This document shows, one piece after another, positions 1 to 7,593 of a stretch of DNA of 7,593 nt (position 1 is the stretch's first letter; every line of letters starts with the position of its first letter). The translations under genes were made by a program, and so were the position numbers. The stretch lies in IMG/VR virus record IMGVR_UViG_2529293142_000030, positions 1 to 7,593 of that record, one strand, 5' to 3'. The notes beneath the pieces were generated by a model. The model did no database searches, was not told the DNA's origin, and worked only from the letters and a program-made list of their open reading frames with translations. Source of the DNA: a virus (lineage: Duplodnaviria > Heunggongvirae > Uroviricota > Caudoviricetes).

Positions 1-315
1 CTAGAAAATCTGCATAAGGGGGAGAAATCCCCCACCTGTAATAACATAACTACTAAAATTAACACCTTGTTCGCACAACTCCTCCACCAGCACGACAAGA
101 TGCCGCACACTGCGCCCCAGCCGATCCAGCTTCCAGACAACCAGAGTGTCACCTGCCGATAATGTCCTGAGCAGTTTTTTCAGTCCCGGCCTTTCGGACT
201 TTGTACCGCTTATCTTGTCTTCAAAAAACAGCTCGCATCCTGCACAGTTCAGCGCATTACGTTGTAGATCTGTGTTCTGGTCATTTGTTGACACACGTAC
301 ATAGCCAATAAGCAT
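1..315 (-). pseudogene. Serine DNA invertase (Hin/Gin/Pin/Cin family), 3'-truncated: only ~92 family-like N-terminal residues, then 17 unrelated codons and a stop
   Basis: Minus-strand ORF. From ATG at 315-313 it reads MLIGYVRVSTNDQNTDLQRNAL...GDTLVVWKLDRLGRS...EELCEQGVNF, matching the N-terminal catalytic domain of Gin/Pin/Hin invertases (catalytic Ser in VRVSTNDQ). After ...VNF (plus coord ~55-58) the expected continuation (RSLTDSIDTSS..GRFFFHV.. and the C-terminal HTH domain) is absent in all three frames; the ORF ends at TAG 3-1. RBS GGGAG lies ~8 nt upstream of ATG 315. The extra N-terminal residues in the ORF track ([12 protein letters not shown], 351-316) are an upstream extension, not gene. 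Confidence 0.75.
18..33 (-). terminator. Possible stem-loop at the 3' end of the truncated invertase ORF (6-bp GC stem, 4-nt loop)
   Basis: Plus strand 18-33 = GGGGGA GAAA TCCCCC, a perfect 6-bp inverted repeat. On the minus strand the hairpin is followed by TTATGCAGATTTTCT, only moderately U-rich. Weak support as a rho-independent terminator. Confidence 0.25.
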
Positions 316-369
316 GGTAGATCTCCCTGACAAAAGCAGGAATGATGCCATTTGCTCGTTATTTCTGCA

Positions 370-395
370 TTTTCATAAACGTTGGTTTGGGAGAA
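370..395. other. 26-bp invertase crossover site (hix/gix/pix-like), invertase-proximal boundary of the invertible segment
   Basis: TTTTCATAAACG-TT-GGTTTGGGAGAA: two 12-bp half-sites resembling the Hin/Gin half-site (TTATCaAAAACC-like) around a central dinucleotide at 382-383. The inner half plus core (382-395) is the exact reverse complement of 2240-2253. Confidence 0.7.
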
Positions 396-755
396 GCGGC
401 AAAACGGGGGGTGGGAACAGGGGAAAATCAGATACCGGACATGGCTTCATTTAGTGGGGTGAGGGATTATTACGGAAAACAACTTTTGCCAGGAGGGTTG
501 ATACTTCAGTGGCTGACGATTCCATCAAGTGCAGCAGCCAAAGCTGTAACACTGAATAATGGTAATTATCAGCTGTCAGGGTATAAATGGCCCCAGTCAT
601 TTGGTGTCCTGTTTGCTGTGTTTGCTACAAAAGTTTCTGGCTCGACTAACGAAGCATATGCAATCTCAGTTAATCGTCACTCTACCGATGTAATTGTCAC
701 CTGGAATGCCCGTAAGGCTGATGATGTCCACATTTTAGGAATTGGGAAATTATGA
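384..755 (+). CDS. Silent alternative tail-fibre C-terminal (receptor-binding) cassette; promoterless and start-less, expressed only after inversion as a fusion to the constant fibre N-terminus
   Basis: Open frame from the crossover core to TGA 753-755 (123 codons: [20 protein letters not shown]...HILGIGKL). It is in the same codon phase relative to the crossover dinucleotide as the expressed fibre gene. Its stop overlaps the downstream tfa start (ATGA at 752-755). The ORF-track N-terminus 342-383 lies outside the segment and is not considered real. Confidence 0.6.
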
Positions 756-1171
756 AAATGAAATGGTCCCCATCTGTTCAGGGATTTTTCTCTGAAAATA
801 ACAGCGATATTCCCGATGATGCTTTCGATATTGAAGATGCTCTTTATTATGAACTTATGAATGGTCAGAGTACGGGGAAAATTATTATCAATAACCCGGA
901 TAACTACCCTGTACTTACTGAATATCCAGCGAAGACACAGGAACAGGAAATAGCTGAAGCGGAGGGAATGAAAAGTATACTTATTGAACAGGCCAACGAA
1001 TACATGAACAGTAAGCAATGGCCTGGTAAAGCCGCTATTGGTCGTCTGAAAGGTGAGGAACTGGCGCAATATAATTTGTGGCTGGATTACCTGGACGCAC
1101 TGGAACTGGTGGATACCTCCAGTGCCCCAGATATTGAATGGCCTACGCCTCCGGCAGTTCAGGCCAGATGA
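752..1171 (+). CDS. Tail-fibre assembly protein (Tfa/gpU-type chaperone) paired with the silent fibre cassette
   Basis: 139 aa with the conserved Tfa C-terminal signature ...[28 protein letters not shown] 752 overlaps the stop of the upstream cassette. Convergent with, and overlapping by 29 bp, the other tfa gene. Confidence 0.8.
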
Positions 1172-1745
1172 CATCAGGCGCGGTGCTGGTATCTGTTGCC
1201 GCCACCGCGTCAATGTAATCCAGCACAGCGTTAAGCCGGTTTTTTTCTGCCTGCATCAGCTTCCGTCCGGCCTGTAATTTCAGCTGAATCAGACTAATGG
1301 AAGCCATTGCAGCATCAATCAGTGACTGGCGCTGTGCTTCTGCCGCTTCTACAGCGGCGCTATGCTGTGCCTCGGTATCCGTGACCCATTTCTCACCATC
1401 CCATTTATCGTATGGCGTTAACGGGACGATAGTGGTTGTATTTTCAGGGTAATCACCCGGAGCTGTGATTTCTTTTGATTCTCCCGTTTCGGTGTTATAG
1501 ACAACTTCTCCGCGATGGTCTGGCACATATTCCCATGAGTTTAAATCTGCCGAACGGCAGATTGCATAACCAGCCTTATGTGTGCCAGGAGCATCTAAAC
1601 AGGAATATGCAGGGATACCGACACCCACAGCAAGATATTCAGTTGATGTGGAAATATATTCCCGTGTTTCACCATCATAATTATAAACGGTAATATCTCC
1701 CGCCTTTGTGGTGATGAGTTCCTTATTTAATATAGCTTTATCCAT
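1143..1745 (-). CDS. Tail-fibre assembly protein (Tfa/gpU-type chaperone) for the currently expressed fibre
   Basis: 200 aa ending ...[27 protein letters not shown] (conserved Tfa C-terminus). The start overlaps the fibre stop as TGATG (1747-1743), indicating translational coupling. Confidence 0.85.
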   Translation of the reverse strand: MDKAILNKELITTKAGDITVYNYDGETREYISTSTEYLAVGVGIPAYSCLDAPGTHKAGYAICRSADLNSWEYVPDHRGEVVYNTETGESKEITAPGDYPENTTTIVPLTPYDKWDGEKWVTDTEAQHSAAVEAAEAQRQSLIDAAMASISLIQLKLQAGRKLMQAEKNRLNAVLDYIDAVAATDTSTAPDVIWPELPEA

Positions 1746-2608
1746 CAGGCAGCCCTTACGATATAATTAAAAGCGATGTTACGAGGACGAGTTTCTGTAC
1801 CTACATTTCCACTAATTTCGCCAAAACGTTTTACACTACGAGTACTAATAGCTCGTAGTGAGGAAGGTACCTTAATACCGGGTTCGTCTGTTTTAACTAT
1901 TCCCCCGTCACCGTATGTAGCCAGTATTCCTGGGTTTACGCCTTCCCGTGCACTTCCTGCGGCGAGTCCGCCCCCTGTCCATAATTCCATATAGTGTGCA
2001 TGGTCCAAAATTGTGTGTGGCTGCCAATTAAGCAAAGCGCGACCAGTATCAATCCCGCGACCGTCATCCCAGCCACGAATAAATTCACCGCGTAAATCAG
2101 GCAATTTATTGGTCGGGTAAGCCTTTGCCAGTTCCGGGTATTCTTCAGCAGAAAAAGCCGCACCATTGCATTTCAGCCAGCCTGTTGGCGGTGTGGCTGA
2201 AGGCCACGGAACAGGTACACCAACGGGTAACGCTGAGCCTTCTCCCAAACCAAGGTTTTCGAGAGCCGTTTTCACCGTGCCATCCGATTTGATATCGCCA
2301 AACGGATTCTTGCGGCTCAGGTATTCAACAGCAAACCCCGATCCCAGCAATTCAACAAAACCGGGCAGATCACCATTATCAAGCACATCCCGTTGCGTTT
2401 TATCACTTACAAACTGGGCCAGAGCTGCAGCAATAAAGCTGGCCTGCCGAATAACCTTATTGACTTGCGCACTGGAGGCTTTCCCTGCTGTAAATCCAGA
2501 TAAAAGCGCGGGCAACGCTTCCCATTCCTCCTGCGATATAACATTGGCATTTCGATCCGTTGCAAACGCTTTAAAGTCATTTTTCGCCATCAGAGTAATA
2601 CTCCCCAT
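1745..2608 (-). CDS. Tail fibre protein; constant N-terminal part (outside segment) fused to a variable C-terminal collar-type receptor-binding domain (inside segment)
   Basis: 287-aa ORF. The C-terminal part carries the phage tail-collar/fibre motif set (GWLKCNG...[22 protein letters not shown]...[15 protein letters not shown]). The crossover site sits at codons ~114-122 ([10 protein letters not shown]). Alternative start ATG 2590 (MAKNDF...) overlaps the upstream gene stop as TGATG and has GGGGAG ~10 nt upstream, so the true start may be 2590 rather than 2608. Confidence 0.8.
2240..2265. other. 26-bp invertase crossover site (hix/gix/pix-like), distal boundary of the invertible segment, inside the tail-fibre gene
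   Basis: TTCTCCCAAACC-AA-GGTTTTCGAGAG. The outer half-site reverse complement is CTCTCGAAAACC (hix-like TTCTTGAAAACC). The inner 14 bp are the perfect inverted copy of 382-395. Confidence 0.7.
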
Positions 2609-3270
2609 GCTCCTACATCAAAACCACTGATGAATTCGTTATCCATATCAAAACCAAAAAATTTTGAGCCTTCCGATGGGGTTTCCACCGAAGGTGTTTC
2701 AATGCCACCCGCCCATACCCCGGCGGCTTTTACTGTGAGATACCCCTGTTTAATTGCCGCAATTAACTCACGCGATACATCTGAAATATCAGTATCAGGA
2801 AAGACCCAGACCGATATCGTCATGTCCTGGTTATCGACTATCTGCATTCGCAGCCCGGATCCTGCTGTTGCCGCGTCAAGAATTGCCGGAAGCGAATCAT
2901 TCCGTCCGTCCCAGTTATTAATCGCAATCTTCGCTTTAAGAATGACACGATAAGTTTCATCGCTGAGATACATGTATCCTGAATCAGGATCGTATGGTCC
3001 CTGCCATACCCCCTGATCATATCCAAGCCCGTCGGTATCCCAGCTGAAATAGACACCTGAGATAGGCTGGCTGACAACACGGCTACGTCCGATCCACAAT
3101 CCAAGGATGTCAAGTTGCACACCAACCGCAGAGTCAATATCAAATGCACTAATCAGCCCTCTGGTGGCAGCCGCAACATCAATAAGTGGCCGGGTCATCA
3201 GATCAACATGCGCAAGAAATTTAGGTTTGGTGGCGTGGTAGTTCGTGATTAGTTCGGTGTATTTGCTCAT
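2590..3270 (-). CDS. Phage tail/baseplate protein, P2 gpI / Mu gp48-like (YmfQ/DUF2313-like)
   Basis: 226-aa ORF in the synteny position between the baseplate J-like gene and the tail fibre. Start ATG 3270 overlaps the J stop (ATGA). Assignment is by position and general resemblance to e14 YmfQ-type proteins, not by a clear motif. Confidence 0.6.
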
Positions 3271-4466
3271 GACTCCACCGTTATAACGATATTTTCCGGG
3301 GTACAGGACGCAGATTCGTTGTATCTGATATCAATGTTTGATGACGACAAAGCCCCCGGGGATTTCCCAATCGTCAGTTCCTGAATATCGTAATAGCGTG
3401 CATTCCCGCCACTCACCACGCCAAGATTCGCCGGTGAGTAAATGCGACTTAAAAGGACCGAATCACCAATCATCAGACTATTGATATAGTCGGAAATAGC
3501 CTGCTGGATCTGCTGCCCTATCTGTGAGGTATAACCCGTAAAAACTTTTAATTTGATCCGGGCATAAACAGGTACATCACTGGAACGCGAGAACTTGATT
3601 ACATGGGGATTGCCGTATTTATCCGGAACCGTAACGGATGTTGTACCGTGAGTGGCTGTCCCCTGACCTTTATTCCCTCTGATAGCCTGAGCAATATCCG
3701 TCACATCACCGCCATCCACAATTACAGCAACAGAGTGTGGCGGTAACCCGTTACCGTCCTCCGAACCAGTATCGTTTTCATAGAGTTTGTGGCGGGTTAC
3801 ACCTGTAACATTAGAAACAGCACCATCCAGTGCTTCAAATGGGGTTATTGATGGCAACGCAACACTTTGCGACTGGCGGATACGTAACTCAGCGTCAGTT
3901 TCTGCCGGAGTGCCCACAGTGGCTGCAGCAGGATTGGTTACCGAAACCCAGCCACGGGTTGGCGTATTAATTTCAGTGATAGTTCCAGCCAGCGCCGCCA
4001 CTGCACCACTGACGGAACATGTTGCGGTCACCATCACTGTACCATCCACGCCTACCACCACTGAAGCAGGCAAACGCCATATCACATTATTACTGTCTTT
4101 CACGCTGCCATTAATGATGGTTGTTCCGGCAGTTCCTGTAAGAAGCAAATCAACCGTAGAATTCGTCGCGCCTTTACGTGAAATACCATTTATTTTCACG
4201 TTACTGGTCAGTGCGGCTCCATAGCCGGTTGCTGGTGAAAAACAGTTATAGACAGTTATCGCCATATTATTGGCATCATGAATCGCCAGCGCCATCAGAG
4301 CCACCATCTGGCCGTCTTTACTGTCTGGTTCGAGGTAGGCATCACTGCCATAAATCTGCTGAAAATAGCTAATCAGGGTGCTGAGTATCGTCTGATAATC
4401 AGGCGCACTGATCCCCTCCGCGGTTACCTTTGCAGATAAACCGAGAGAATCAAGGTTCAGAGCCAT
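3267..4466 (-). CDS. Baseplate J-like protein (P2 gpJ / Mu gp47 family)
   Basis: 399-aa ORF of typical size and composition for baseplate J-family proteins. Start overlaps the upstream gene stop (TAATG at 4468-4464), stop overlaps the downstream start. Sits in the conserved V-W-J-I-fibre order. Confidence 0.75.
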   Translation of the reverse strand: MALNLDSLGLSAKVTAEGISAPDYQTILSTLISYFQQIYGSDAYLEPDSKDGQMVALMALAIHDANNMAITVYNCFSPATGYGAALTSNVKINGISRKGATNSTVDLLLTGTAGTTIINGSVKDSNNVIWRLPASVVVGVDGTVMVTATCSVSGAVAALAGTITEINTPTRGWVSVTNPAAATVGTPAETDAELRIRQSQSVALPSITPFEALDGAVSNVTGVTRHKLYENDTGSEDGNGLPPHSVAVIVDGGDVTDIAQAIRGNKGQGTATHGTTSVTVPDKYGNPHVIKFSRSSDVPVYARIKLKVFTGYTSQIGQQIQQAISDYINSLMIGDSVLLSRIYSPANLGVVSGGNARYYDIQELTIGKSPGALSSSNIDIRYNESASCTPENIVITVES

Positions 4467-4819
4467 TACGCCTCCGATGTAACAGTCGTTATTCCATAGA
4501 GAGTGTCGATTTCAGTGGAAAACCTGACACGTCGGGTCGTGGTATCCACCGTAGTATTGAAAGAGAGGATTGATTTAACGCCCCGCGTTTCGAGGATGCG
4601 CTTACGGATCGCCAAGTTGTAGGTTTCCGGCTTCTGCTTACCGAGTACGGACTGGATCCACGGAGTCCCCTCGGTGGTGTCGAGAAACCATTGCCCATAC
4701 CACAATTCGAATCGCGTTTTTACCGCCTGCGCCACGGCCTCCGGTGAGTTAATCAGCCAGGTGTCATCACCGCTGCCAAAGGTGTAATCGCCATCGGCGT
4801 CTTCACGTCTGTATCGCAT
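4466..4819 (-). CDS. Small baseplate protein, gpW / Mu gp46-like (gp25-type wedge protein), assigned by position
   Basis: 117-aa ORF, coupled on both sides (TGATG at 4821-4817; TAATG at 4468-4464). Size and location between the V-like and J-like genes match gpW/gp46. No strong motif recognised. Confidence 0.55.
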   Translation of the reverse strand: MRYRREDADGDYTFGSGDDTWLINSPEAVAQAVKTRFELWYGQWFLDTTEGTPWIQSVLGKQKPETYNLAIRKRILETRGVKSILSFNTTVDTTTRRVRFSTEIDTLYGITTVTSEA

Positions 4820-5481
4820 CAGTTTACTCCGTCGGTATTGCTTCCACCGCGCTGAACACCACCATGAGTGTGCGTATCATCGATTGGCTTGCCGTTAGCC
4901 TTCACGCTACCCAAAAACTCAACAGCACCAGTGATTTTTGAAGCCACACCAGAAACCACAGACCCCACCATGCCACCCATCCAGGTTAACAGGCCATGTA
5001 TGGTTACTTTCTCAGAAAAATCAGCCAGAGGGGCAACCACATCAAGACCACCCGGAGCGACAATTTTAATTTTCCTGGTATCAGGATTAAGCTCAAAATA
5101 GGTGCTGCCGTCGTCACTACGCAACTGTGTGGCACTGGTATTAATACCGCTAATCTTCCTCGCCTGCGACTGGGGACCGACAATACAAAACGCATCCGAT
5201 AAATCATGCATTCTGTCATCAACAGGCTCCTGTATCCCGCCGTTCTGCCACCAGAAATCAATACAACGATCGGCAAAAACGACAAGACACTCATCCCCGG
5301 CTTTTACCGGAAAAGTCAACGTACAGCCTCCGCCGCGCGGGAATACCACTGGCACATCCACCAGCAATGGGTAATTTTTGGTAATGCGGTTACCGTAGTT
5401 ATCCTTTTCAACCGAACGGATAGCTGGCTGCACAACCGCCGTCACCGCGTCAGGATCGAATGACTGAATAATGCCAGGCAA
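4819..5481 (-). pseudogene. Baseplate spike/hub protein, P2 gpV / Mu gp45-like, 5'-truncated by the IS66-family insertion
   Basis: 220-codon open frame with a gpV-like C-terminus (..GKPIDDTHTHGGVQRGGSNTDGVN) and a GII-containing N-terminal region that in P2 gpV lies ~20 residues in. No ATG start: the frame opens at a TTG at 5481-5479, directly abutting the IS end, and upstream in-frame codons are IS sequence with a stop at 5517-5515. The body of the gene is otherwise uninterrupted. Confidence 0.6.
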
Positions 5482-5568
5482 GGGTAAGCGTAAACCGACC
5501 GCCGTATGTAGCCATTAGACAAGAATTGGTAACTTAGACGCCCATCTGACACAGACGGACATCTAAGT

Positions 5569-5988
5569 ATGGAATTACAGGACTGGCGAAAAGAACCTCG
5601 TAAAAAGTATTCGAATGAATTCAAACTTCGTATGGTTGAACTGGCATCACAACCCGGTGCTTGTGTGGCTCAGATTGCACGAGAAAATGGCGTCAATGAT
5701 AATGTTATTTTCAAATGGCTCAGACTCTGGCAAAACGAAGGGCGTATATCACGGCGTCTTCCGGTGACAACCACTTCTGACGCAGGCCTTGAATTATTAC
5801 CTGTAGAGATAACGCCTGATGAGCCGAAAGAACCGATGGCTGCTCTTACTCCGCCCTTATCCACTCAGACTACTGTCAGTGCCAGCTCCTGCAAGGTGGA
5901 GTTCCGTCACGGTAACATGACGCTGGAAAATCCTTCACCAGAGCTGCTCACTGTATTGATTCGTGAACTGACCGGGAGGGGAAGATGA
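5569..5988 (+). CDS. tnpA: IS66-family accessory protein TnpA (orfA, HTH-containing)
   Basis: 139 aa with the typical IS66 orfA segment ...FKLRMVELASQPGACVAQIARENGVNDNVIFKWLR... Stop overlaps the orfB start (ATGA at 5985-5988). Confidence 0.85.
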   Translation: MELQDWRKEPRKKYSNEFKLRMVELASQPGACVAQIARENGVNDNVIFKWLRLWQNEGRISRRLPVTTTSDAGLELLPVEITPDEPKEPMAALTPPLSTQTTVSASSCKVEFRHGNMTLENPSPELLTVLIRELTGRGR

Positions 5989-6317
5989 TCTCACTCCCAT
6001 CCGGTACCCGTATCTGGCTCGTTGCCGGGATAACCGATATGCGTAAGTCTTTCAACGGGCTGGGTGAACAGGTACAGCATGTGTTAAATGTTAATCCCTT
6101 CTCCGGTCACCTGTTTATCTTCCGTGGCCGACGGGGTGACACCGTTAAAATTCTTTGGGCTGATGCTGATGGTCTGTGCCTGTTCACCAAACGTCTGGAG
6201 GAAGGCCAGTTTATCTGGCCTGCGGTGCGTGACGGTAAGGTATCCATTACCCGCTCGCAACTGGCAATGCTCCTCGATAAGCTGGACTGGCGTCAGCCAA
6301 AAAACATCCCGCCTTAA
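5985..6317 (+). CDS. tnpB: IS66-family Orf2 protein TnpB
   Basis: 110 aa, MISLPSGTRIWLVAGITDMRKSFNGLGEQV...LFIFRGRRGDTVKILWADADGLCLFTKRLEEGQFIWP: the hallmark IS66 Orf2 pattern. Translationally coupled to orfA. Confidence 0.9.
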   Translation: MISLPSGTRIWLVAGITDMRKSFNGLGEQVQHVLNVNPFSGHLFIFRGRRGDTVKILWADADGLCLFTKRLEEGQFIWPAVRDGKVSITRSQLAMLLDKLDWRQPKNIPP

Positions 6318-6367
6318 CGCCCTGACAATGTTGTAAAAAACGCCTGGCCGCATTATAAAAACGGCCA

Positions 6368-7593
6368 TGAGTCAGAAATACCTCATTCGCATTGCAGAAC
6401 TGGAAAGCCAGCTCCGTCAGAAAGACCAGCAACTGAGTCTGGTTGAAGAGACGGCGGCCTTCCTGCGCTCTGCACTGGCACGTGCCGAAGAAAAGATCGA
6501 AGAGGATGAACGGGAAATAGAACATCTGCGGGCTCAGATAGAAAAACTGCGCCGGATGCTGTTCGGTACCCGTTCTGAAAAACTGCGTCGTGAAGTTGAA
6601 CAGGCTGAGGCCCTGCTGAAACAACGCGAACAGGACAGCGATCGTTGCAGTGGGCGGGAAGACGATCCACAGGTTCCCCGCCAGTTGCGACAGTCGCGCC
6701 ATCGTCGTCCGTTACCGGCACACCTTCCCCGTGAAATACACCGTCTGGAGTCTGAAGAAAGCTGTTGCCCGGAGTGTGGCGGTGAGCTGGATTATCTGGG
6801 GGAAGTCAGTGCAGAACAACTGGAACTGGTGAGCAGCGCCCTGAAAGTGATCCGCACAGAACGGGTAAAAAAAGCCTGTACAAAATGTGACTGCATCGTT
6901 GAAGCACCGGCGCCGTCCCGCCCGATAGAGCGTGGTATCGCGGGCCCCGGATTACTTGCCCGCGTGTTAACGGGAAAATACTGCGAACACCTGCCACTGT
7001 ATCGTCAGAGTGAAATCTTTGCCCGACAGGGTGTCGAACTGAGCCGTGCATTACTCTCCAACTGGGTTGACGCGTGCTGCCAGTTAATGACACCGCTGAA
7101 TGATGCCCTGTACCGTTATGTGATGAATACCCGCAAGCTTCACACTGACGACACACCGGTAAAGGTACTGGCACCGGGCCTGAAAAAGACGAAAACAGGG
7201 CGCATCTGGACGTATGTCCGGGATGATCGCAATGCGGGTTCGTCATCTCCTCCGGCGGTCTGGTTCGCGTACTCACCGAACCGGCAGGGGAAACACCCGG
7301 AGCAACACCTCCGCCCCTTCCGGGGTATCCTGCAGGCGGATGCGTTCACAGGTTATGACAGGCTGTTCAGTGCAGAACGTGAAGGTGGTGCGCTGACAGA
7401 AGTTGCGTGCTGGGCCCATGCCCGGAGAAAAATCCACGATGTATACATCAGCAGCAAAAGTGCGACGGCAGAAGAAGCCCTGAAGCGAATCAGTGAACTG
7501 TACGCCATCGAGGATGAAATACGGGGATTACCAGAGTCAGAGCGTCTTGCAGTCAGACAGCAGCGAAGCAAAGCGTTAACTGACGTCGCTGCA
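6368..7593 (+). CDS. tnpC: IS66-family DDE transposase TnpC, 3'-partial (first ~408 codons; continues beyond window)
   Basis: Own translation from ATG 6368 (in-frame stop at 6356-6358 upstream): MSQKYLIRIAELESQLRQKDQQL... (coiled-coil/leucine-zipper-like N-terminus), zinc-finger motif CCPECGGEL..(x)..CTKCDC, then ..GKYCEHLPLYRQSEIFARQGVELSRALLSNWV...HTDDTPVKVL...RIWTYVRDDRNAG...PAVWFAYSPNRQGKHP...CWAHARRKIHDVY.., all typical of IS66 transposases. No stop before 7593. It is absent from the supplied ORF track because it lacks an in-window stop. Confidence 0.9.

Follow-up and report, generated by a model that had tools for sequence, protein, structure and literature searches.

The locus analysed here raises the question of whether two inverted sites in the tail-fibre genes of a prophage form an invertible switch and, if so, by which enzyme it could be operated. 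The window, i.e. the whole stretch of 7,593 bp that was analysed, very probably contains an inversion switch of the Din family (Hin/Gin/Cin/Pin) and of the e14 P-segment type, of which the invertase encoded in cis is dead and which would be flipped only in trans.

Recombination sites

The left recombination site (370..395, minus strand, core dinucleotide 382-383) has the plus-strand letters TTTTCATAAACG-TT-GGTTTGGGAGAA. On the minus strand this gives TTCTCCCAAACC-AA-CGTTTATGAAAA, which is the published pixR of e14. The right site (2240..2265, plus strand, core 2252-2253) reads TTCTCCCAAACC-AA-GGTTTTCGAGAG, the published pixL of e14, and is located inside the fibre gene at the boundary between its constant and variable parts (..ALEN-L-GLGE..). 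Identity was complete in both comparisons (pixR with the reverse complement of 370-395 and pixL with 2240-2265, 26 of 26 positions each; Table 3, PMC3241671). The two 26-bp sites, inverted and about 1.87 kb apart, had been described in a first-pass annotation of this DNA, and their letters were found as written there.

Each site consists of a 2-bp core flanked by two 12-bp half-sites of imperfect symmetry, as is the case for Din-family sites. The cores are reverse-complementary (TT at 382-383, AA at 2252-2253), and the sites are oriented in opposite directions. Core and inner arm together form an exact inverted repeat of 15 bp (382-396 versus 2239-2253), in agreement with the earlier statement that they are exact reverse complements, and a repeat search yielded an inverted pair of 20 nt with 95% complementarity at the two sites. 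The 14-mer TTCTCCCAAACCAA occurs in exactly two copies in the window, one on each strand (expected 0.00 from 200 shuffles). A third site with three or fewer mismatches to this 14-mer of core plus arm was not found in the whole window, and a multi-site shufflon of the Min or EPEC P2-like type was rejected for this reason. The 26-bp Din consensus TTCNNNNAAACNNANGTTTNNNNGAA matched the window only at the two sites (4 strand-hits with at most two mismatches; 0.23 expected), a number that was reached by none of the 200 shuffles. Thus, the comparison with known invertase sites against shuffled controls, which had been proposed as a check, came out in favour of pix sites.

The codon phase is the same at both sites, as had been noticed before (..GGT TTG GGA GAA, G L G E). 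The identity of the inner arms had also been taken as a sign of past inversion, an argument that does not hold: identical inner half-sites are general in pairs of pix, gix and cix sites (Table 3, PMC3241671), and the inner arms at both sites also encode the common peptide GLGE. That the segment has inverted in the past is concluded here from the comparison of genomes instead.

Tail-fibre cassettes and product of the inversion

The invertible segment (384..2251) comprises 1868 bp between the cores, or 1870 bp from core to core, and contains two convergent cassettes, each composed of a fibre C-terminus and its own tail-fibre assembly gene. In the present configuration the tail-fibre gene (1745..2590, minus strand; Pfam Collar, E=2.7e-15, and annotation of relatives) encodes 281 aa with the start used in RefSeq relatives, or 287 aa with the upstream ATG at 2608. 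Its constant part (2254-2590) comprises 113 codons including the core-spanning Leu, and its variable part (1745-2251) encodes 168 aa with a phage tail collar domain. The present fibre shares 59% identical amino acids with StfE of e14. The TfaE-like assembly gene of the collar cassette (1143..1745, minus strand; Pfam Caudo_TAP, E=3.9e-31; 90.5% amino acid identity to TfaE of e14) shares 29 nt at its 3' end with the other tfa gene.

The silent alternative cassette (342..755, plus strand) encodes, from position 384, a gp53-like C-terminus of 123 aa. Its Pfam match is weak (Gp53-like_C, E=0.0023, below the cut-off), and RefSeq relatives of this ORF are annotated as 'gp53-like domain-containing protein'. 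As it stands, ORF 342-755 starts with a fortuitous 14-codon leader, as in stfE of e14. The cassette is completed by its own tail-fibre assembly (chaperone) gene (752..1171, plus strand; Pfam Caudo_TAP, E=5.7e-24; 50% amino acid identity to TfaP of e14). A promoter-like site was not found upstream of ORF 342 or of pin when positions 1-2700 were scanned; matches to promoters and terminators were fewer in this region than in shuffles, so that the scan is mute on expression.

Inversion of the segment in silico resulted in an in-frame fibre of 236 aa (242 aa from the upstream ATG). This product is identical in 233 of 236 positions to the annotated fibres of E. coli DEC5A and A16, and its variable 123 aa are 100% identical to these natural proteins. 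The earlier prediction that inversion replaces the 168-aa collar tip by the 123-aa alternative in frame was thereby borne out. A crossover within the fibre gene, fibre products that remain in frame (281 aa with a collar tip, 236 aa with a gp53-like tip), and two convergent Caudo_TAP genes are the features of a host-range switch.

Invertase remnant and putative enhancer

Next to the left site lies the remnant of a Pin-type serine invertase gene (1..315, minus strand). It comprises 104 codons and matches the Pfam Resolvase N-domain at profile positions 2-98 of 145 only. Residues 1-88 alone are homologous to PinE, i.e. about 88 of 184 PinE-like residues are left, and in place of the residues from about 89 on, 16 unrelated codons and a stop follow. 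According to alignments with PinE and Gin, the remnant is devoid of the rest of the catalytic domain, of the E-helix and of the helix-turn-helix domain; a full-length adjacent invertase (approximately 185-190 aa with catalytic domain, E-helix and C-terminal helix-turn-helix) is not present. The same remnant is labelled 'incomplete; missing C-terminus' in RefSeq. Nucleotide identity to pinE of K-12 amounts to 94% up to about window position 49-52, and the sequences are unrelated beyond this point; in a four-way alignment the remnant was 66% identical to Gin. It retains the N-terminal ..YVRVST.. stretch, which, as in other members of the family, presumably holds the catalytic serine. Judged by these alignments, the locus is a descendant of a Din-family system, yet incomplete in cis. 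The truncation of the invertase, the IS66 insertion and the occurrence of both orientations with an identical remnant (see below) were not mentioned in the first-pass annotation.

A putative homologue of the Fis-dependent recombinational enhancer (231..294, minus strand) is located in the 5' end of the invertase gene. It contains two G-N13-C 15-mers (280-294 and 231-245), which are presumably the Fis cores and were placed by analogy to the hin enhancer. The stretch shows two mismatches to pinE of K-12 and is strongly conserved in comparison to gin of Mu, a conservation that coding constraint could also explain. Between the nearer 15-mer and the left core there are about 96 bp, which fits the distance of about 100 bp that separates hixL from the proximal Fis site (PMC3798978). 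Fis may bind to 231-294, and this region may act as an enhancer.

Prophage context

The prophage is myovirus-like and occupies the yfhH-yfhL interval of the E. coli chromosome, with the invertible segment at the prophage end. Upstream of the fibre gene, a baseplate operon (2590..5483, minus strand) comprises a DUF2612/wedge gene (2590-3270), a baseplate J gene (3267-4466), a sheath-initiator-like gene (4466-4819) and a spike gene that has lost its 5' end (4819-5483). These minus-strand genes were assigned by Pfam and by the annotation of relatives, as well as by gene calls and Pfam searches on loci with more than 99.9% identity. The operon supplies transcription and the constant part of the fibre.

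Homology to intact relatives stops at 5483, and at 5484 the spike gene is interrupted by an IS66-family insertion sequence (5484..7593, plus strand), which starts with GTAAGCG at the IR position and runs off the window. It contains three ORFs (from 5569, 5985 and 6368) and was identified by Pfam matches to HTH_Tnp_1, TnpB_IS66 and DDE_Tnp_IS66 on a 99.9% identical locus (L009). Because this element cuts the spike gene, the prophage is defective. In addition, the fibre operon is severed from its upstream part and the fibre may consequently go unexpressed. With the truncated cis invertase and the disruption by IS66, the switch at this locus can neither drive itself nor alter the host range of a viable phage.

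Orientation of the segment among E. coli genomes

The inverted junction was contiguous in three complete E. coli genomes, and the junction of the window type in 22. In strain DEC5A, window positions 377-2258 aligned in reverse (99.84% identity over 1882 bp), while 49-396 and 2239-5375 aligned forward, which places both breakpoints within the sites. The segment is likewise reversed in E. coli FDAARGOS_946 (99.84% over 1882 bp) with forward flanks, and it is flipped in strain A16, which has the same yfhH locus and an intact pinE. The DEC5A copy is located at a different chromosomal locus; the segment is 99.84% identical to it, the flanks only 95-97%.

The identical 104-aa remnant was present in 1744 index blocks of the collection. 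It was found at the purL-mltF-tadA-yfhH locus in 8 of 8 places among the matches listed, and both orientations occur. One such pair is CP041359.1 and UWWW01000001.1 (L018 and L021), of which the flanks are 100.000% identical over 2620 and 4896 bp and the segment between the pix sites is reversed. Both orientations beside the identical remnant at the yfhH locus were also observed for the pair L023 and L025 and for O111:H11 strain 8D. Hence, inversion with breakpoints at the sites has occurred in nature (DEC5A, FDAARGOS_946, A16, L018/L021, L023/L025), and, as remnant-bearing genomes with 100% identical flanks differ in orientation, flipping went on after the truncation, presumably by means of an invertase acting in trans. 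The 8 loci that were retrieved via the exact fibre protein all show the window orientation by necessity of this look-up, so that the IS66-bearing sublineage was sampled one way.

Related modules occur with a median of 2 and a maximum of 12 per E. coli genome. A pinE-like 3' half was detected by megablast in at least 1599 of the 5426 complete E. coli genomes, a minimum, since only one place was found in K-12 records, though PinQ and PinR are present there (PMC12529663).

Proposed mechanism and alternative explanations

From what is known of the family, a serine invertase dimer would bind to each 26-bp pix site, and the two sites would synapse with the Fis-bound enhancer. Both strands would then be cut at the AA/TT cores (382-383 and 2252-2253) with a 2-bp stagger, and rotation of a subunit pair by 180 degrees would flip the 1.87-kb segment. 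The 113 constant fibre codons outside the segment would be joined in frame to either tip: in the present state the 168-aa collar-domain tip with the TfaE-like chaperone, in the alternative state the gp53-like tip of 123 aa together with the chaperone of that cassette. This strand exchange at the cores is assumed here by analogy to the characterised members. With a pseudogene in place of the cis invertase gene, but with intact sites and an intact enhancer region, the segment would depend for any flipping on a different Din-family invertase acting in trans, which the source genome probably encodes elsewhere. Such a trans-acting invertase fits the published behaviour of e14.

It is possible, even if rather unlikely, that the pix sites are real and the segment is nevertheless a frozen fossil, locked in the collar-tip orientation in the source genome. 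The truncation of the invertase at about codon 88 and the disruption of the operon by IS66 would agree with this, as would the single orientation of all near-identical loci retrieved, which is forced by the exact-protein look-up. However, a clean inversion distinguishes genomes that share the identical remnant and have flanks of 100% identity, which means that flipping in this lineage goes on without the cis gene. Moreover, sites and enhancer region are intact, and PinQ and PinR invert pix-flanked DNA in trans (PMC12529663). A chance inverted repeat in tail-fibre genes without a recombination function can practically be dismissed: the exact repeat is short (15 bp), but both sites are identical in all 26 positions to experimentally defined pix sites, none of the 200 shuffles reached the observed matches, and natural inversions break at these sites.

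The differences in orientation might also be due to homologous recombination or gene conversion among related copies of the prophage, or to the choices made in assembly. With up to 12 related modules per genome the opportunity is given, and the high identity of the segment to the DEC5A copy next to less similar flanks indicates that cassettes are exchanged between prophages. We nevertheless regard this origin as very improbable, because forward and reverse alignments overlapped in every comparison only in the 20 bp at 377-396 and 2239-2258, because a repeat of 15 bp neither suffices for efficient RecA-dependent inversion nor misleads an assembler, and because the flanks of the L018/L021 pair are 100% identical. 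Hardly more probable is a switch that is kept for use by the host and outlives its phage. ORF 342-755, with its stfE-type leader, GLGE and gp53-like domain, would then be an analogue of StfE2 that is flipped into place by the invertases of other prophages and blocks phage adsorption. The architecture, a stfE-type leader fused to a gp53-like C-terminus, does resemble StfE2; the sites are intact, the identical remnant is widespread (1744 index blocks) and flipping continues. On the other hand, no similarity was detected between the gp53-like domain and that part of StfE2 which derives from StfP, a promoter-like site before 342 is absent from the scan of 1-2700 (with fewer matches than in shuffles), and a wide distribution can result from plain clonal inheritance. 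Taken together, a P-type switch with a dead cis invertase, flipped in trans, is the explanation we prefer.

This kind of system is already known; it is a textbook phase-variation module with the sites defined for e14. For annotation, an invertible segment whose invertase gene is a pseudogene should be entered at this locus, and either orientation may appear in assemblies of the lineage. The comparative data document, as a clean case from nature, that a segment between pix sites still flips after the loss of its cis invertase, in agreement with the trans action of PinQ and PinR on e14 (PMC12529663).

Comparison with known inversion systems

The closest known system is the P segment of e14, a cryptic prophage of E. 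coli K-12, with its invertase Pin (PinE), the sites of which were reportedly defined experimentally by Plasterk and van de Putte in 1985. Both 26-bp sites are identical to those of the window, nucleotide identity in the 5' part of the invertase gene, where the enhancer region lies, amounts to 94%, and the order of constant fibre part, cassette with tfa, convergent tfa with cassette, and invertase is the same. Furthermore, the TfaE-like chaperone (90.5%) and the collar cassette (59% to StfE) have their counterparts there, and StfP of e14 shows 90% identity to the final 30 aa of the window's constant part before the crossover.

In contrast, e14 sits at icd and the prophage of the window at yfhH-yfhL. 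The N-terminus of the constant fibre part and the baseplate genes differ (YmfQ DUF2313 in e14, DUF2612 in the window), the variable part of StfP is unrelated in sequence to the gp53-like cassette, and the chaperone of the latter is only 50% identical to TfaP. The e14 segment measures 1797 bp (PMC12529663) in comparison to 1870 bp from core to core in the window, and pinE of e14 in K-12 is intact. The locus was therefore rejected as an orthologue of the e14 P segment itself, given the yfhH-yfhL position in all relatives and the cassette content. With a constant part and one cassette unrelated to those of e14, it is a P-type module that is paralogous and belongs to another prophage.

The G segment of Mu with Gin and the C segment of P1 with Cin share mechanism and layout with the window. 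In Mu, the constant Sc lies outside, the cassettes Sv/U and Sv'/U' lie inside, and the invertase is adjacent with the enhancer in its 5' end. The sites of Mu and P1 fit the same Din consensus; however, gix of Mu has the core GA, where pix, hix and cix have AA, and the half-site sequences differ. The G segment is, with about 3 kb and much longer fibre parts, larger, and both phages, Mu and P1, are viable and have an intact invertase.

A further parallel is the action of PinQ and PinR, the invertases of other cryptic prophages, on e14. PinE, PinQ and PinR each invert the P segment, the repeats of which are the same TTGGTTTGGGAGAAGG (PMC12529663), and e14 inverts constantly in culture (PMC4272514). 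As proposed for the window, a pix-flanked segment is flipped there by invertases encoded elsewhere in the genome. After PinQ-driven inversion, StfE2 of e14 is reported to block the adsorption of phage T2, a defence phenotype that was demonstrated in K-12, where the cis gene pinE is intact (PMC12529663).

Recombination sites and gene arrangement

The left 26-bp site (370-395, TTTTCATAAACG-TT-GGTTTGGGAGAA) and the right 26-bp site (2240-2265, TTCTCCCAAACC-AA-GGTTTTCGAGAG) were found at exactly the positions and with exactly the letters described in the first-pass annotation. Published pixL is TTCTCCCAAACC AA GGTTTTCGAGAG, and published pixR is TTCTCCCAAACC AA CGTTTATGAAAA (Table 3, PMC3241671). 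All positions of the right site agree with pixL, and those of the left site, read as its reverse complement, agree with pixR (26/26 each); the match to known invertase sites, whose failure would have refuted the proposal, is therefore as close as it can be. The 26-bp consensus of the Din family matched the window only at these two sites, a result equalled by 0/200 shuffles. Identical pixL and pixR strings occur in K-12 e14 and in the related loci fetched, the only exception being L002, in which the pixR string was not found. The inverted, matching inner arm and core that had been claimed correspond to an exact 15-bp inverted repeat common to both sites (382-396 vs 2239-2253), and the repeat search of the window listed the site pair as 20 nt at 95% (pair I2). 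The 14-mer of inner arm and core is present in exactly two copies, one per strand (expected 0.00 from 200 shuffles), and no third copy exists in the window at ≤3 mismatches. The switch therefore has just two sites, and a shufflon was rejected.

The baseplate operon on the minus strand comprises the genes for the spike (4819-5483), a sheath-initiator-like protein (4466-4819), baseplate J (3267-4466) and a DUF2612/wedge protein (2590-3270), and ends with the tail-fibre gene (1745-2590). The latter encodes 281 aa if read from the start chosen in RefSeq relatives, which forms a TGATG stop/start overlap with the wedge gene, or 287 aa from an upstream ATG. pixL is located inside this gene. A phage tail collar domain (E=2.7e-15) is found in the 168 aa beyond the crossover, and the gene for a TfaE-like chaperone (1143-1745, minus strand) comes next. 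Convergent to these collar-cassette genes, the plus strand carries a promoterless gp53-like C-terminus of 123 aa (384-755), which starts at pixR and is contained in ORF 342-755 with a fortuitous 14-codon leader, and another chaperone gene (752-1171). The minus-strand invertase gene begins 55 bp leftward of pixR.

The convergent genes for tail-fibre assembly share 29 nt at their 3' ends (1143-1171), as do tfaP and tfaE in e14. The conserved C-termini of the two window genes form an 83% inverted repeat (1081-1103/1202-1224, pair I3). In the related locus L021 (UWWW01000001.1, 2967-3406), an in-segment chaperone gene is split (43 aa + 103 aa), and in L008, another such locus, the in-segment chaperone genes are fused (355-aa Caudo_TAP call). 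Such differences between otherwise identical genomes suggest that the cassettes contain frameshifts or sequencing errors.

Inversion in silico and in other genomes

Reversal of 384-2251 in silico kept the reading frame and yielded a fibre of 236 aa, or 242 aa from the upstream ATG, so that the proposed in-frame replacement of the 168-aa collar tip by the 123-aa tip holds. This fibre shares 233/236 residues with the annotated fibres of E. coli O55:H7 DEC5A and strain A16, including all 123 residues of the variable part. The inversion product exists in nature. A query of 721 nt spanning the in-silico junction was found contiguously in three complete E. coli genomes (100% coverage, 97.9-98.5% identity), and the window-type junction in 22. 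In DEC5A, window 377-2258 aligned in reverse (99.84% over 1882 bp) and 49-396 and 2239-5375 aligned forward, with an identical outcome in FDAARGOS_946; hence, the overlap between forward and reverse blocks is confined to the two sites. In strain A16, which has an intact pinE, the segment is flipped at the chromosomal locus of the window (yfhH).

These observations confirm the invertible segment and support the interpretation of the first-pass annotation with two caveats. The identical inner arms, which had been read as a sign of past inversion, are a family feature and no proof of it, and the switch has lost its own invertase and lies in a dead prophage.

Loss of the invertase and probable continued inversion

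The invertase ORF (1-315, minus strand) has 104 codons, and Pfam detected only positions 2-98 of 145 of the Resolvase N-domain profile. In nucleotide and protein alignments, homology to K-12 PinE and Mu Gin extends to about residue 88 (..GVNF), beyond which the ORF continues for 16 unrelated codons to its stop at window 1-3. The remnant lacks the remainder of the catalytic domain as well as the E-helix and the helix-turn-helix domain, and for other genomes that carry it the RefSeq annotation reads 'recombinase family protein, incomplete, missing C-terminus'. An active invertase cannot be produced from this cis gene.

The pinE homology ends at about window 49-52, and the 48 bases beyond are common to many E. 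coli genomes (e.g. MS20658, WP3-W18-ESBL-08, O111:H11 8D), where a 281-aa hypothetical gene without a Pfam hit comes next. The truncation seems to go back to a single old event, a deletion or replacement, that was widely inherited.

By homology, the recombinational enhancer is predicted at about codons 7-30 of the invertase gene (231-294, minus strand). This stretch has two mismatches to K-12 pinE, and its conservation is high even in comparison to Mu gin; the centre of its nearer 15-mer lies about 96 bp from the left core, in keeping with the ~100 bp that separate hixL and the proximal Fis site (PMC3798978). Putative Fis cores were placed in it after the hin enhancer sequence. As far as the sequence permits a judgement, the cis-acting parts, i.e. 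the sites and the predicted enhancer, are intact.

In the public collection, 1744 index blocks carry the identical 104-aa remnant protein. All of the eight places listed lie at the purL-mltF-tadA-yfhB-yfhH locus, and both segment orientations are present among them. Two related loci, L018 (CP041359.1) and L021, have 100.000% identical flanks over 2620 and 4896 bp, and the stretch between their pix sites is reversed (99.5% identity); the loci L023 and L025 are likewise reversed between the pix sites (segment 99.68%). In O111:H11 strain 8D, the remnant is adjoined by the collar cassette, opposite to the window. The simplest reading is that the segment kept inverting after truncation of the invertase, presumably driven in trans. 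In line with this, the e14 P segment, whose repeats are the same TTGGTTTGGGAGAAGG, is reported to be inverted by each of PinE, PinQ and PinR (PMC12529663), and e14 to flip constantly in culture (PMC4272514). A pinE-like 3' half was detected by megablast in at least 1599 of 5426 complete E. coli genomes, which is a lower bound because K-12 records gave one place although PinQ and PinR are also described there (PMC12529663).

Prophage context

In relatives, the module is located at the end of a ~40-kb myovirus-type prophage between yfhH and yfhL, which possesses head, tail, lysis and replication genes and an integrase. An IS66-family element (5484-7593, terminal GTAAGCG) with ORFs for an HTH protein (from 5569), a TnpB_IS66-like protein (from 5985) and a DDE transposase (from 6368, extending past the window end) is inserted in the spike gene, whose first ~30 codons are gone together with everything upstream. 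This renders the prophage defective, and at present the switch cannot change the host range of a viable virion. Public assemblies of the window's own lineage are 100% (L012) and 99.99% (L010) identical, and their contigs stop within the IS66-family element. In the pphA-yebW prophage copies of DEC5A (L003) and FDAARGOS_946 (L027), a Phd/YefM-Doc toxin-antitoxin pair (7754-8574 in L003) lies directly upstream of the spike gene; yfhH prophage copies have small hypothetical genes at this place.

Domestication of the switch by the host, with a StfE2-like role of ORF 342-755, is the only reading with some novelty, and it is very improbable. The ORF is built like e14 StfE2, which is reported to block adsorption of phage T2 (PMC12529663), with a stfE-type leader, GLGE and a gp53-like domain. 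However, this gp53-like part does not resemble the StfP-derived part of StfE2, and a search for promoter-like sites found none ahead of the ORF.

Comparison with known systems

The segment (377-2258) is 99.84% identical to the copy of DEC5A and FDAARGOS_946 in a different prophage at pphA-yebW, whereas the invertase and baseplate flanks are only 95-97% identical. Hence, the whole invertible module appears to have been exchanged between prophages as a unit. The kind of system is already known: in both its working and its descent, the switch belongs to the Hin/Gin/Cin/Pin family, with the e14 P segment as its closest match. Both sites are identical to those of e14, the 5' DNA of the invertase gene is 94% identical, the TfaE-like chaperone shows 90.5% aa identity, and the collar cassette is homologous to StfE (59%). 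In contrast, the module differs from e14 in its locus, in the baseplate genes and in most of the fibre constant part, homology to e14 stfP sets in only about 65 bp outside pixL (window 2238-2317), and the gp53-like cassette is unrelated to that of e14; on these grounds, identity of the module with the e14 element itself was rejected.
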